A DNA stretch of 64,000 nucleotides from SAR86 cluster bacterium (GTDB lineage Bacteria; Pseudomonadota; Gammaproteobacteria; Magnimaribacterales; D2472). Within the stretch, counting starts at the first letter, position 1. Each line of letters begins with the position of its first letter. Position numbers and translations under genes: made by a program. This document shows, one piece after another, positions 4,619 to 9,428 of this stretch. Below the pieces are notes generated by a model. It was given only the letters and a program-made list of their open reading frames with translations, ran no database searches and was not told the DNA's origin. Location: positions 918,315-982,314 of the forward strand of contig CP097971.1 of assembly GCA_023703615.1 (NCBI GenBank), read 5' to 3'.

Positions 4619-5227
4619 CTATTTTAAACTTCTTGCAAATTTTCTCACTTTTCGCATATGTTTTTCAAAGTCACTTTTTTTCATGTTTGGTAGTACTGAA
4701 TAGAATCTTAAATACTTCGTCTTGAGTCCACCGGATTGAAATATTGATTTTTTCAATCTTCTGTAAGGAATATTATCAAATAGAGAAAAATTAAAATAAC
4801 TCACCATTGGTCCACCATAGGTCATAGAAACAATACCAATCTTATTCTTCATTGCTCCTGCAACAGGATATCCATAGTTACCAAAAAATTTACTATCAGG
4901 TAATAATGATTTGTATGAAAAGAACCATGTGGGATGAAGAACCCAGTCAATCCAATTTTCTAGAATCACATTCATTCTTAAATTATGACAAGCACTCATT
5001 AAAAACATTGCATCTGAATCTTCTAGTCTGCTTCTGTAATCCATTACTAATTGAGGAGGAGGATTTATATCACTTCTGTAAAATGGTAATTGCTCTTCTT
5101 CATCAAACAAATTTATCAAATCTATTTCATGTCCAATTTTTTTTGATTCTTCAATAAAGGTATCTCTAACAGATGCATTAAAAGAATCTTTAGTATTAAA
5201 ATGGCCAAAAACTATACAAATTTTCAT
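4619..5227 (-). CDS. flavodoxin-like fold NAD(P)H (quinone) oxidoreductase family protein
   Basis: 'MKICIVFGHFNTKDSFNASVRD' N-terminus. I place the start at the ATG at 5227. The ORF-track TTG at 5242 lies inside the duplicated guaA tail. Confidence 0.6.
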   Translation of the reverse strand: MKICIVFGHFNTKDSFNASVRDTFIEESKKIGHEIDLINLFDEEEQLPFYRSDINPPPQLVMDYRSRLEDSDAMFLMSACHNLRMNVILENWIDWVLHPTWFFSYKSLLPDSKFFGNYGYPVAGAMKNKIGIVSMTYGGPMVSYFNFSLFDNIPYRRLKKSIFQSGGLKTKYLRFYSVLPNMKKSDFEKHMRKVRKFARSLK

Positions 5228-5230
5228 ATT

Positions 5231-5246
5231 ATTCCCACTCAATAGT
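5231..5246. repeat. distal copy of 16-bp direct repeat (pseudo guaA 3' end)
   Basis: Exact match to 7865-7880, read directly from the sequence. Confidence 0.9.
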
Positions 5247-5317
5247 AGAATGCCTCTGAAACCCTTGTATAGATAGTGTTTCAGAATAGTGTGTCACATT
5301 TGTGTCATACGAATTAT

Positions 5318-5608
5318 TCATTTGTATGCCCTATCGTAAACTTCTATAAATTCTTCGATGTCTGCTATGTGTCCTTCAAAATGTAAAATATCTTTTTCAT
5401 AACCGTCTATGAGTTCTTTAGTCAATTTCTTAATTCTTGCAAAATCGATTTCATACATTCTACCGTTTTCATAATGTTCCCGATTTTCATCTAATAAATC
5501 AATGACTACTTTTTGTCTTTTTTTAAAACCTTCAAGAGTTTTCTTTTGATTAGGTAATTTTCGTTTTACGACTTTATATAATTCGTGGTCATTCTCTAAA
5601 TAACTCAT
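5318..5608 (-). CDS. hypothetical charged 96-aa protein
   Basis: ORF with an ATGA overlap to the upstream small membrane ORF. No recognisable motif. Confidence 0.4.
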   Translation of the reverse strand: MSYLENDHELYKVVKRKLPNQKKTLEGFKKRQKVVIDLLDENREHYENGRMYEIDFARIKKLTKELIDGYEKDILHFEGHIADIEEFIEVYDRAYK

Positions 5609-5808
5609 TTACCTGTAAGTATATATTGAAAGGAATACTTTGAAAAAATTAGGAAACCGTAAAGAGCGCAAAGTGCTCTCCATGCAGGCATGTCGAAATT
5701 TTCCATAACAATAAGAAGAGGACTGGGAAAATAACCATCATTTGGAATTATAGATATTGTCAAAATTACAAATAGTATATTGTGTAACCTCTGAATTTTT
5801 TCGTTCAT
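5605..5808 (-). CDS. hypothetical small membrane protein (2 predicted TM segments)
   Basis: 67 aa. Hydrophobic stretches 'ILFVILTISII' and 'ALCALYGFLIF'. Coupled to the downstream ORF. Confidence 0.35.
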   Translation of the reverse strand: MNEKIQRLHNILFVILTISIIPNDGYFPSPLLIVMENFDMPAWRALCALYGFLIFSKYSFQYILTGK

Positions 5809-5832: not shown

Positions 5833-6360
5833 TTATTTTTTTGACCATGACCAAGATATAGTTGTATTTTTTACACAATGGTTGTTTGTTACGAAGTTGT
5901 GGTAACCAATTCCACTAGACATATTTGATACCGAACCACTATATTTGGCAACTGCTCTTCCTCTTGATTGTATTAATATATCTTCAGACCATGACATTAA
6001 TGGATCTTTATCGGAATCTAAAAAAGTTATTTCATATTTTAATGTCGCAGTATTTTTAGTTCGATTAACAACATCCATTTTCCATCCTGACAACTGATAG
6101 CATCCTAAATTTTTAACTATAAAATCACCATTAAATAACTCGGTATCATTAAAGGATAAAACTTTTTTATCAAGATCAGAACTCCCTATAACTGATGAGG
6201 AACCACTACCTGACAAAGAACCTCCCCAACCAGAACTTCTATGACAATGATATCCACCAGTTTTAGTCTCTTTATGACAACCGTATCTGTCTAAACCGCC
6301 TCCATGTGAAAATAGAGCACTTGAAAAAGCAAAAAATATAACTGCAAAAAGATATTTCAT
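5833..6360 (-). CDS. secreted YHYH-motif domain protein
   Basis: Signal peptide 'MKYLFAVIFFAFSSALFSHG' followed by 'GGLDRYGCHKETKTGGYHCH' (YHYH-domain signature). Start placed at the internal ATG (M7 of the track ORF). Confidence 0.6.
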   Translation of the reverse strand: MKYLFAVIFFAFSSALFSHGGGLDRYGCHKETKTGGYHCHRSSGWGGSLSGSGSSSVIGSSDLDKKVLSFNDTELFNGDFIVKNLGCYQLSGWKMDVVNRTKNTATLKYEITFLDSDKDPLMSWSEDILIQSRGRAVAKYSGSVSNMSSGIGYHNFVTNNHCVKNTTISWSWSKK

Positions 6361-6487
6361 TATGATTATTATACACATTGAAAATATGCAAAAAATCCCA
6401 ATATAAATAAGTGTAAAGAAAGAAATATATTCCTTATTTCAGATTCCATTACTCACATCAACATACCTAATTTTGGGTGTGTTTTTT

Positions 6488-6802
6488 ATGGAGAAAAATA
6501 TGCAAGTATTTAAATGTGAAATTAACAATCCGAAAGGAAAAATCAATCATAACGTTCACGTTGATTGGGATGATCAAGGTAACCTACATTTTTGTGAACA
6601 CGATCTTGGAGATGGTGTAAAAGAGTTTTGGGGAACTGATGAGTATGAATACTTTATGATGATTCCGCAAAAGCATGTCGCAAAGTTTATTCTTTGTTCT
6701 TTTTGGAAAGGTTTTACTTTTGAAGGGAGATTCACAGTTAAAGAATTAAGAGAATTATGTGATGAATACAAAATTGAATATCAAACTGATTTTTGGATGT
6801 AA
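6488..6802 (+). CDS. hypothetical protein
   Basis: ORF on the opposite strand to its neighbours. The first ATG is at 6488 (the track uses TTG at 6473). No motif recognised. Confidence 0.4.
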   Translation: MEKNMQVFKCEINNPKGKINHNVHVDWDDQGNLHFCEHDLGDGVKEFWGTDEYEYFMMIPQKHVAKFILCSFWKGFTFEGRFTVKELRELCDEYKIEYQTDFWM

Positions 6803-6817
6803 TTAATTAAAAAATAA

Positions 6818-7753
6818 TTATCTTTTATATTCGTTTAGACTGAAGTTAACCTCATATGTAAAAATCTCAACATCCTTTGCTCTTTTTTGTGCGTAGTAAA
6901 GTTTTTCATCAAATTTTCCAGCAACAATAATACCTTTAACATTCTCATCTTGTTTTTTCTCTTCAATCCATCCCATGTATCTTAAAATTTGTCCAACTGT
7001 GTCATCACTCGTTTGATTTCTTTTTAGTTCTATCACAACGTGGTGTCCGTCTTTTTTATCTTTTGCAAGAATATCTATTCTTCCAATGTCAGTCATATAC
7101 TGCTGACTTTTTAAATCACCCTCTTCATATATAAGATCATATTTTTTTCCAAACTCTGTTTCATTCCAATTTTCAATAATGAAGTCTTCTAGTTGTTGCT
7201 CCATATAGAACAAACCAGAACTCATTGATGACTTTTCATCTTTAAGTTCTATATTAAGACACTCTTTAAAAAAATTAACTATTTCTTTTAATTCTTGGAG
7301 AAGTTCTTCATCTGATATCTCTTTACCGTCTCTACAAAAAATTACATCACCATTTTTAATTTCAGGTTCGTAATGTTTGTATACAAATGAATCTCCATAT
7401 CTGAAAGGATTTTCAATAAAATTTGAAATCTTTGTCTTGGAATCATGTATCTCTCTAGTCCAACTTGTTTCTGGAATATGAGTCTCACTTATGCCATATG
7501 CAAGAATCAATATATTCTGTTCTTTATAAAATAAATAAACTGGGTTATATCCATTACTCACCGGCATATCCGGTGCTCTCAATGCAACCCATGGCACTTT
7601 TGATAAATTACCTTGTCCGAAAGATACCTTCATTTTAAGATCTAAAAATTCTTTAGGGTAATCTTTCGTTTTAAGACTATCTGTCTCTGTTTGCTTGATA
7701 AAATCTTTTAAGAATTCCATTGAATAAGTATGCCATGAACTTATGACTTTCAA
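6818..7753 (-). CDS. McrB-N-like (DUF3578-type) DNA-reader domain fused to NucS/DUF91-like PD-(D/E)xK nuclease; putative modification-dependent restriction endonuclease
   Basis: N-terminal half: 'LKMKVSFGQGNLSKVPWVALRAPDMPVSNGYNPVYLFYKEQNILILAYGIS'. C-terminal half: 'EQQLEDFIIENW...DIGRIDILAKDKKDGHHVVIELKRNQTSDDTVGQILRYMGWI...VKGIIVA'. Confidence 0.6.
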   Translation of the reverse strand: MKVISSWHTYSMEFLKDFIKQTETDSLKTKDYPKEFLDLKMKVSFGQGNLSKVPWVALRAPDMPVSNGYNPVYLFYKEQNILILAYGISETHIPETSWTREIHDSKTKISNFIENPFRYGDSFVYKHYEPEIKNGDVIFCRDGKEISDEELLQELKEIVNFFKECLNIELKDEKSSMSSGLFYMEQQLEDFIIENWNETEFGKKYDLIYEEGDLKSQQYMTDIGRIDILAKDKKDGHHVVIELKRNQTSDDTVGQILRYMGWIEEKKQDENVKGIIVAGKFDEKLYYAQKRAKDVEIFTYEVNFSLNEYKR

Positions 7754-7862
7754 TAGTTCTTAAAGTGTGTCAGATTTGTATTTGTAAGATTTGGAAACCT
7801 GCATTCCTACATTGAAGTGACAAATTGTCTCATACGTAAACTACTGATATAAGGTAATTATT

Positions 7863-9428
7863 TCATTCCCACTCAATAGTTGCAGGCGGTTTACTGGAAA
7901 TATCGTAAACTACCCTGCTTACATCTTCTATTTCATTAACTATTCTATTAGAAACATGTTCTAAAAATTCATAGGGTAAATGTGCCCATCTAGCTGTCAT
8001 AAAGTCGACTGTCTCAACTGCTCTTAATCCTATAACTTCTGCATATCTTCTTTCATCTCCAACAACTCCAACTGATTTTATTGGTAAAAGAACTGCGAAA
8101 GCTTGACTGACTTTATTGTAATGATCTGCTTTAATGAGCTCCTCTATAAAAATATTATCTGCTTCTTGCAATACTTTCACTTTTTCTTTTGTTACCTCTC
8201 CTAAAATTCTTACACCCAAGCCTGGACCAGGAAAAGGATGTCTATTTATCATTGATGAAGATATACCCATTGCGGCCCCCATTTTTCTTACTTCATCTTT
8301 AAATAGATCTCTTAAGGGTTCAACTAAATTTAATTTCATCTCTTCAGGCAAACCACCCACATTATGATGGGATTTTATGACTCTAGCTTCTTTTGATTCT
8401 GATCCTGAGGACTCTATTACATCAGGATAAATTGTCCCTTGTGCTAAAAATGAAATATCTTTTAACTTTGTTGCTTCTGAATCAAATACATCAATAAAGG
8501 TTCGACCAATTATCTTTCTTTTTTGTTCTGGATCTTCGATATTTTTTAAATGTCTAAAAAAAATTTCTTGAGAATCTGATTTTATAACATTGAGATTCAT
8601 GTGTTCTTTAAATGTTTCCATTACTGAAATAGCTTCATCTTTTCTTAATAATCCATTATCAACAAATACACACGTAAGTTTTTTACCAATTGCCTTGTTA
8701 AGCAAAGCAGCTGTAACTGAAGAATCAACTCCGCCAGATAGCCCTAAAAGAACTTTTTTGTCGCCAACTTGATCTTTGATTTCATTTATTCTTGATGAAA
8801 TTAAATCATCCATCTTCCACTCTGATTTTGCTTTTGCGATATCAAAAATGAAGTTATCCAATATTTCATTTCCACTTTTAGTGTGAGTAACTTCTGGATG
8901 AAACTGAAGAGCATAAATTGGTAAGGTTTTGTGCTGCATTGCTGCTACTGGAGCTGTTTGAGTTGATGCGATAAGATCAAATTCATCTGGTAAATCTTGA
9001 ACTTGATCTCCATGACTCATCCAAACGTTTAATTTTTTAGGTAAATTTTTAAATAAAGTTGAGTCATTCACAATCTTTAGTTCTGAATGTCCAAATTCTT
9101 TTTGATTTGATGATATGACGCTACCACCCATTTGTTCAGCAAGTGTTTGCATGCCGTAGCAAATTCCTAAAATCGGAACATTAATATCAAAGAGGCATTT
9201 TGGTATTCTTGGTGTAAAACTCTCAGTAACAGAATTAGGTCCACCCGAAAGTATTACTGCTTTGGGATTAAGTTTTATAATTTTTTCTTCAGATATGTCC
9301 CATGGTAATATTTCAGAATAAACAAGGCTCTCTCTAACTCTTCTTGCAATTAATTGAGTGTATTGTGAACCAAAATCTAAAACTAAAATTGTGTCAATCT
9401 TTTTATTGCTAACAGATAGTTTGCTCAT
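7863..9428 (-). CDS. guaA: GMP synthase (glutamine-hydrolysing)
   Basis: Full-length 521 aa with GATase 'GICYGMQ', PP-loop '[10 protein letters not shown]' and canonical C-terminus 'KPPATIEWE'. Confidence 0.97.
7865..7880. repeat. proximal copy of 16-bp direct repeat (genuine guaA 3' end)
   Basis: Exact match to 5231-5246. Encodes TIEWE plus the first base of the stop codon. Confidence 0.9.

Follow-up and report, generated by a model that had tools for sequence, protein, structure and literature searches.

What does a marine SAR86 bacterium do with a gene annotated as endonuclease NucS when half of the encoded protein resembles something else? The question arises from a 64,000-nucleotide (nt) stretch of a SAR86 cluster bacterium genome (contig CP097971.1, positions 918,315 to 982,314; hereafter the window, to which coordinates refer unless a locus is named). 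An initial annotation, made from the sequence alone, had read the gene at 6818-7753 as a stand-alone fusion of a reader domain like the N terminus of McrB (McrB-N) with a NucS/DUF91-type nuclease. We found that the gene does encode these two domains, and from its sequence and modelled structure we consider it probable that the product is a one-protein, single-chain type IV-like defence enzyme acting against DNA with modified bases.

An McrB-N reader joined to a NucS-like nuclease

The open reading frame (ORF) 6818..7753, a 311-amino-acid (aa) frame on the minus strand with a TTG start, is present and contains the motifs on which the annotation relied. Its start, by contrast, did not hold. The TTG at 7753 is spurious, as it sits inside a conserved 142-nt non-coding leader (7721..7862, minus strand) that takes in the first 11 codons of the frame. 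Because of this, and because database homologues are called from an ATG, as M-E/D-F-L-K, we place the true start at the ATG at 7720. The coding sequence is 6818-7720 (minus strand, stop codon 6818-6820) and encodes a 300-aa protein identical to the public record URQ69261.1, 'endonuclease NucS [SAR86 cluster bacterium]'. We observed no compositional anomaly; the gene has about 30% GC, the same as its flanks.

The first half of the protein (aa 1-156; 7253..7720, minus strand) has the McrB-N/DUF3578/ADAM fold. The Pfam profile MrcB_N (PF12102) matched residues 16-164 of the 311-aa form (E=4.8e-9, 36.5 bits against a cut-off of 25), and phmmer against the PDB returned E. coli McrB-N (3ssc, E=4e-20, about 30% identity). 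The NCBIfam equivalog model of E. coli McrB matched residues 14-121 (E=1.5e-20), a match that covers only model positions 7-115 of 459 and scores 73 bits against a cut-off of 637. The reader is larger than first annotated, about 155 rather than about 110 aa. The second half (aa 173-300; 6821..7204, minus strand) is a NucS-like PD-(D/E)xK nuclease. It matched NucS_C (PF01939; E=5.5e-14, 52.7 bits against a cut-off of 24), with other PD-(D/E)xK families in Pfam giving weaker matches, and P. abyssi NucS in the PDB (2vld, E=3e-5). Two NucS equivalog models scored it far under their cut-offs (57.9 against 216 bits and 42.6 against 252 bits).

Structure prediction gave the same assignments as the profile hidden Markov models (HMMs) and the PDB sequence search. 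The AlphaFold2 model, for which a family alignment of 18 sequences (A1) was used, had a mean predicted local distance difference test (pLDDT) score of 79 and contained two folded domains separated by a disordered, presumably flexible linker (aa 157-172; 7205..7252, minus strand; pLDDT below 50). The first 20 Foldseek matches in the PDB were all McrB-N chains (probability 1.0, template modelling (TM) score 0.71-0.80 on the target), followed by NucS/EndoMS and then by the nuclease domains of Can2 and Card1. The checks proposed with the annotation, which looked for an unrelated fold in the N-domain and for missing catalytic residues in the C-domain, recovered the McrB-N fold and an intact D...E-x-K triad. 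D216 (7073-7075), E231 (7028-7030) and K233 (7022-7024) align with D160, E174 and K176 of NucS, and all three are invariant in A1 (n=18), together with E174, E178, Q244 and Y248.

The fusion shares with NucS/EndoMS (P. abyssi 2vld and T. kodakarensis 5gke) the C-terminal fold, the D-E-x-K triad and the Q...Y motif. In the fusion, however, the N-terminal dimerization and DNA-binding domain of NucS is replaced by McrB-N, and the gene is not a core gene but an accessory, mobile one. Because the NucS N-domain is absent and the scores fall under the equivalog cut-offs, we do not place the protein in NucS/EndoMS. At NCBI, URQ69261.1 and related plasmid proteins go by the name 'endonuclease NucS (domain-containing protein)'. 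The name 'endonuclease NucS' is misleading and overstates the relationship.

A predicted single-chain enzyme against modified DNA

The reader retains the residues with which McrB-N holds a flipped base. In the E. coli protein, Ser38 and Trp49 clamp the phosphates flanking this base and Tyr117 stacks on it; one wall of the pocket is formed by Trp49, Leu68 and Tyr117 and the other by Tyr64, Ala59 and Ser60, with Tyr64 and Leu68 contacting the 5-methyl group (Sukackaite et al., PMC3424535). The equivalents of Ser38, Trp49, Leu68 and Tyr117 (S33, W44, L63 and Y108) are invariant in A1 (n=18). In McrB-N, the flipped base is hydrogen-bonded by backbone atoms of a non-conserved loop, unmodified cytosine is flipped in crystals too, and Tyr41, which intercalates into the DNA, occupies a position that is not conserved and at which Gln occurs naturally among McrB homologues (PMC3424535).

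In keeping the finger-loop clamp, the pocket leucine and the stacking tyrosine, the fusion resembles McrBC, the GTP-dependent type IV system of E. coli K-12, whose reader is homologous and whose effector is also a PD-(D/E)xK nuclease. Unlike McrBC, the fusion has no AAA+ GTPase motor (the window protein gave no AAA_5 or GTPase match) and no McrC, and it carries its nuclease, of the NucS rather than the McrC type, in the same chain. Lacking both the GTPase and McrC, it does not belong to McrBC, and without a motor its cleavage cannot depend on translocation between two distant sites.

Closer in organization are the single-chain enzymes MspJI and AspBHI (SRA-like reader with an Mrr-like PD-(D/E)xK nuclease), TagI (SRA-HNH) and VcaM4I (EVE-HNH). 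These combine a base-flipping reader of modified cytosine with a nuclease, as proposed for the fusion, and like it they have no methyltransferase and no nucleoside triphosphate-driven motor (PMC6765204). A single-chain type IV enzyme unites a modified-base reader and a nuclease in one polypeptide with no cognate methyltransferase, and this is the organization that we found here. The readers of MspJI, TagI and VcaM4I are SRA or PUA/EVE domains, whereas the fusion pairs McrB-N with a NucS-like nuclease; MspJI has a similar domain order, but neither of its domains is homologous to those of the fusion at the sequence level. A NucS-like PD-DExK effector also serves one-protein sensing of modified bases in END-Mag, where it is joined to an inactive endonuclease III-like sensor and protected against phages with modified guanine (preprint PMC12191111). 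The END-Mag sensor is of the HhH glycosylase type and is directed at modified guanine (PMC12191111), whereas an McrB-N sensor would be expected to take a pyrimidine. The nuclease half also matched the models of the PADLOC candidate PDC-S02 (E=7.5e-42), a match confined to model positions 152-306 of 308; the N-terminal half of PDC-S02 is unlike that of the fusion, and PDC-S02 is itself an unvalidated candidate. One preprint names ADAM/DUF3578 as one of the readers by which HNH nucleases are recruited in enzymes that depend on modification, and the general idea is therefore not new. What is plausibly new here, within single-chain type IV enzymes, is the pairing of an McrB-N reader with a NucS-like nuclease.

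Base-flipping DNA binding, the identity of the modification, oligomerization, cleavage and a defence phenotype are what we infer for the fusion. In the mechanism that we propose, the McrB-N-type domain would scan duplex DNA from the minor groove and flip a pyrimidine, probably a modified cytosine, into its pocket, and the flexible linker would set the NucS-like domain on nearby DNA. Because each chain has one active site, the nuclease would probably act as a dimer or higher oligomer. Its cuts would destroy incoming phage or plasmid DNA bearing the modification. The host would be spared by the absence of that modification from its own DNA and would therefore need no methyltransferase. The initial annotation had likewise proposed a motor-less, single-chain type IV-like enzyme, and the domains, folds, conserved residues and partner-free loci support it computationally. 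The neighbours found in seven homologous loci, a MazG-like gene and an Nhi/AbiO-like helicase gene, are defence-like and also speak for this reading.

Several observations weigh against it. The fusion differs from McrBC at two positions of the reader. Tyr41 is replaced by Gln36 in the window protein, and the same change (Y41Q) weakened DNA binding by E. coli McrB-N (PMC3424535); the methyl-contacting Tyr64 is replaced by Asn59 in the window protein and its clade. When candidates were expressed in E. coli B, those reported to protect against T4, T5 or T7 did not include the one PDC-S02 representative (bioRxiv 10.1101/2024.09.26.614923). Most homologous loci adjoin housekeeping operons and not defence islands. 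At the insertion hotspot downstream of guaA, where the gene lies in this genome, the cargo of other loci consists mostly of transporters, small-molecule methyltransferases, acyl- and glycosyltransferases and helix-turn-helix (HTH) regulators. Finally, we found no paper in the searched literature that describes this McrB-N/NucS-like fusion or experiments on it.

The Tyr64 position bears most directly on what is read. It is Asn in 81 and Tyr in 39 of 124 sampled fusion proteins. Among 19 long McrB-like proteins, 18 have Tyr there, and the remaining one, the genuine McrB GTPase P0129, has the Asn64 variant. Judged from these alignments, the pocket is intact, with one methyl-contacting wall predicted to have turned polar in this clade, and 5-methylcytosine (5mC) therefore cannot be assumed to be the target modification.

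One possible explanation for the two substitutions is that the reader has drifted away from modified cytosine altogether and that the nuclease acts independently of modification, as an abortive-infection toxin, as an enzyme specific for a DNA structure or for unmodified DNA, or as an RNA-directed enzyme. The backbone hydrogen bonds from a non-conserved loop, which leave base identity unfixed by sequence, are consistent with such drift, as is the lack of protection by the PDC-S02 representative against T4, whose DNA carries modified cytosine. We nevertheless consider this improbable. The clamp, pocket and stacking residues are invariant, Gln is normal at position 41 among McrB homologues, and Asn64 also occurs in P0129; moreover, a constantly active nuclease would be toxic to a cell lacking an immunity partner, and we found no conserved partner.

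Neighbouring genes and spread across phyla

The initial annotation had described the gene as having no partners. In the 64-kb window we found no ORF with C5 or N4/N6 DNA-methyltransferase motifs, and the neighbourhood of the gene contains no adjacent McrC (DUF2357 plus PD-(D/E)xK). We extended the search to 57 homologous loci, where we clustered 1,029 flanking ORFs all against all and scanned the 213 closest to the gene with Pfam. No DNA methyltransferase, McrC or McrB GTPase appeared among the Pfam families most often matched by these 213 ORFs. The absence of a motor, methyltransferase or specificity subunit thus holds in the window and across the roughly 57 loci; the claim needs amending for 7 of the 57, which have recurrent neighbours.

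These neighbours, the sole recurrent ones, are a MazG-like gene and a helicase gene, found in loci of the Candidate Phyla Radiation (CPR), Bacteroidota and archaea. The helicase, a Schlafen group 3 (DUF2075) protein that also matches GIY-YIG weakly, resembles models of the defence systems Nhi and AbiO; in one locus (L048:1591-5040) it is joined to an S24 peptidase domain. The three genes form a tight same-strand cluster in four of the seven loci (L048, L051, L056 and L068), are divergent in L053 and L054, and in L036 the arrangement is a downstream one. They may constitute a three-gene system. If they did so generally, the fusion could be a partner-dependent sensor-effector and the solitary SAR86 copy an orphan that does little or nothing by itself. 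The recurrence of the trio across CPR, Bacteroidota and archaea, its tight clustering in four loci and the match of the helicase to defence models are consistent with this idea. We judge it decidedly improbable, since 50 of the 57 loci lack MazG-like and helicase neighbours, the solitary form keeps all catalytic and pocket residues under apparent purifying selection (A1 and the 124 sampled fusions), and the varying order and orientation of the trio fit a shared island better than an obligate complex.

We found the fusion in many lineages. A word-indexed search returned 1,787 related clusters at 90% identity; the top 120 of these all had the two-domain architecture and all came from marine metagenomes. 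An exhaustive search of representatives found 3,268 relatives, of which only about five 50%-identity clusters aligned over the full length. The remainder had the reader half only, in many cases as part of McrB GTPases 490-1,100 aa long, or the nuclease half with other N-termini. Since these partial relatives share one half each, both modules have been shuffled independently. In a scan of one genome per GTDB species, the full-length fusion was present in about 57 species representatives; organism names are those of the records, many of which are single-cell or metagenome assemblies. Prochlorococcus copies are 72-76% identical to the SAR86 protein. The other bacterial carriers are SAR324, Pelagibacteraceae (SAR11), further SAR86, Chloroflexota, Actinobacteria, Flavobacteriaceae (Bacteroidota), Marinimicrobia and many CPR lineages, and the archaeal carriers are DPANN, Bathyarchaeota and Nitrososphaerales. 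This patchy spread across phyla at high identity indicates that the gene has moved by horizontal transfer. A viral origin was considered and rejected: the fusion matched none of 50,697 phage genomes, and no IMG/VR sequence matched it over its full length.

Plasmid records have only the nuclease domain in common with the fusion, and this module, at 47-66% identity, also occurs fused to other N-domains. In P0134, P0135, P0138, P0146 and P0148 it is joined to an all-alpha N-domain of about 230 aa, which was confidently modelled and had no Pfam match and no fold match in the PDB. It is a putative uncharacterized sensor domain. The PDC-S02 profiles matched these proteins over the nuclease half only. 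As the N-domain has no match in the PDB, these proteins add only that the nuclease module is shared.

The gene usually lies 3' of a housekeeping operon, which in the window is guaBA. In four loci glmUS lies upstream (L015, L017, L019 and L021), and an 84%-identical copy lies downstream of glmS in another genome (L093/L094:6111-8900). In SAR11, homologues follow dnaG-rpoD. These positions suggest that several 3'-end hotspots receive the gene. Homologues in L022, L023, L025 and L061 likewise lie directly downstream of conserved housekeeping operons. The site of the 84%-identical copy, 3' of glmU-glmS, is the classical Tn7 attachment position.

The guaA insertion site and implications for marine bacteria

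How the gene came to lie beside guaA in this genome could be read from its flanks. The 3' end of guaA (GMP synthase; 7863..9428, minus strand) is the insertion site. It forms the left direct repeat (7860..7887), whose core, ACTATTGAGTGGGAAT on the minus strand, encodes T-I-E-W-E-stop. The right repeat (5226..5253) contains the same 16-nt exact core, ACTATTGAGTGGGAAT, and abuts the start of a flavodoxin-like gene. The repeats are 28 nt long, lie 2,634 bp apart and bound a 2,634-bp islet (inserted segment 5254..7859), which confirms the guaA-associated islet of the initial annotation. In a related SAR86 contig (L157:3290-3400) the site is empty: the guaA stop is followed by one base and then by the ATG of the flavodoxin-like gene, and this sequence aligns with both window junctions. 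The nuclease gene was present in none of 51 related SAR86 guaA loci (79-84% GuaA identity) for which 1.1 kb or more of sequence downstream of guaA was available.

Two direct copies of the core, 0.5-2.6 kb apart, were found in 12 SAR86 loci, including the window and its strain copies (L001 and L003), suggesting that the guaA 3' end is a recurrent insertion site for small cassettes. Elsewhere its cargo also includes two tyrosine integrases. We rejected the idea that the hotspot is a defence island, as its cargo in other loci is mostly metabolic or transport genes. The nuclease gene is cargo of a general guaA 3'-end insertion hotspot, not of a dedicated defence island. The initial annotation's reading of the gene as islet cargo is borne out in that the gene is accessory, was acquired horizontally and sits in an integration hotspot, with the qualification that most of the cargo there in other genomes is not defence-related.

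The 142-nt leader, which separates the guaA stop from the ATG, recurs with 86-100% conservation in other SAR86 loci (L174:6567-6703, L156:3933-4071, L163:3050-3186, L124:4346-4485 and L126:6567-6704), where it precedes unrelated first genes whose ATG is at the same position. It might be a recombination or expression platform. A consensus scan found no promoter in it, and a structured RNA was rejected, as the leader had no Rfam match and a fold z-score of 0.44. In a metagenomic contig (L006:1-2930), a cassette with a serine recombinase (Resolvase, PF00239) and small ORFs precedes the core, the leader and the nuclease gene, and ends in a variant core, GATTGAGTGGGAATGA. This arrangement suggests tandem accretion of cassettes, with the serine recombinase as a candidate recombinase.

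Besides the nuclease gene, the islet contains a convergent ORFan (6500-6802, plus strand; 100 aa, no Pfam domain), a 181-aa YHYH-domain protein (5833-6378, minus strand; N-terminal YHYH motif domain NF033223, E=3.4e-8, with a probable signal peptide) and small ORFs at 5605-5808 and 5318-5608, both on the minus strand. The ORFan belongs to a small but abundant family restricted to marine metagenomes (38 clusters, some comprising 300-400 sequences). It lies beside the nuclease gene only in close SAR86 relatives and elsewhere adjoins other genes, for example one encoding a MutH-domain protein in L180. We rejected it as a partner or immunity gene, as at 80% identity it adjoins other genes with no nuclease.

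The accessory status of the gene also bears on a role in DNA repair, the role suggested by its public name. A base-flipping domain that detects mismatches or damage, coupled to a NucS-type domain that incises, could replace mismatch repair in a streamlined genome. Such a role would be consistent with the conserved NucS_C domain and catalytic triad, with the flipping of unmodified cytosine by McrB-N in crystals, with the many homologues beside guaBA, glmUS and dnaG-rpoD, and with the enrichment of the family in streamlined lineages. We consider it very improbable. The scores far under the NucS equivalog cut-offs and the wholesale replacement of the NucS N-terminal domain argue against it, and a core repair gene would not be expected to sit in an inserted islet, to be missing from all 51 related guaA loci or to move across phyla at 72-76% identity.

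Least probable of all is that the nuclease serves the guaA-targeting cassette itself, promoting its insertion or excluding competing elements instead of defending the host: in a repeat-bounded cassette it is the gene next to the conserved leader, and in L006 it follows a recombinase-bearing cassette, but cassettes with the same leader carry unrelated first genes, homologues occupy many other sites (glmS, rpoD and others) with no leader, and the reader is of the modified-base type and not a sequence-specific homing module.

Returning to the reading of a one-protein defence enzyme, its architecture will not surprise a specialist; the points of interest are the marine spread, the Tyr64-to-Asn pocket and the guaA cassette platform. 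A more far-reaching version, which we regard as unlikely in its entirety, would make the fusion a main single-gene anti-phage defence of streamlined plankton (SAR86, SAR11 and Prochlorococcus), CPR and DPANN, passed on horizontally. In the SAR86/Prochlorococcus clade, the Tyr64-to-Asn pocket would then direct it away from 5mC and towards a pyrimidine modification of marine phages that is polar or bulkier, and delivery in SAR86 would be as a promoter-proximal cassette through an undescribed guaA 3'-end platform made up of the core repeat and the 142-nt leader.

If the fusion acts as we propose, it would represent a motor-free version of McrB recognition. The 'endonuclease NucS' label would mislead inferences about repair pathways in these genomes. 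The Tyr64-to-Asn pocket could read a different cytosine modification, which would be useful for epigenetic tools. SAR86, SAR11 and Prochlorococcus rank among the ocean's most abundant cells and are believed to have few recognizable defence systems. A self-contained enzyme of 300 aa that moves among them would help to fill this gap in marine defence, and its presence would imply that some of the phages infecting SAR86, SAR11 and Prochlorococcus carry modified pyrimidines.

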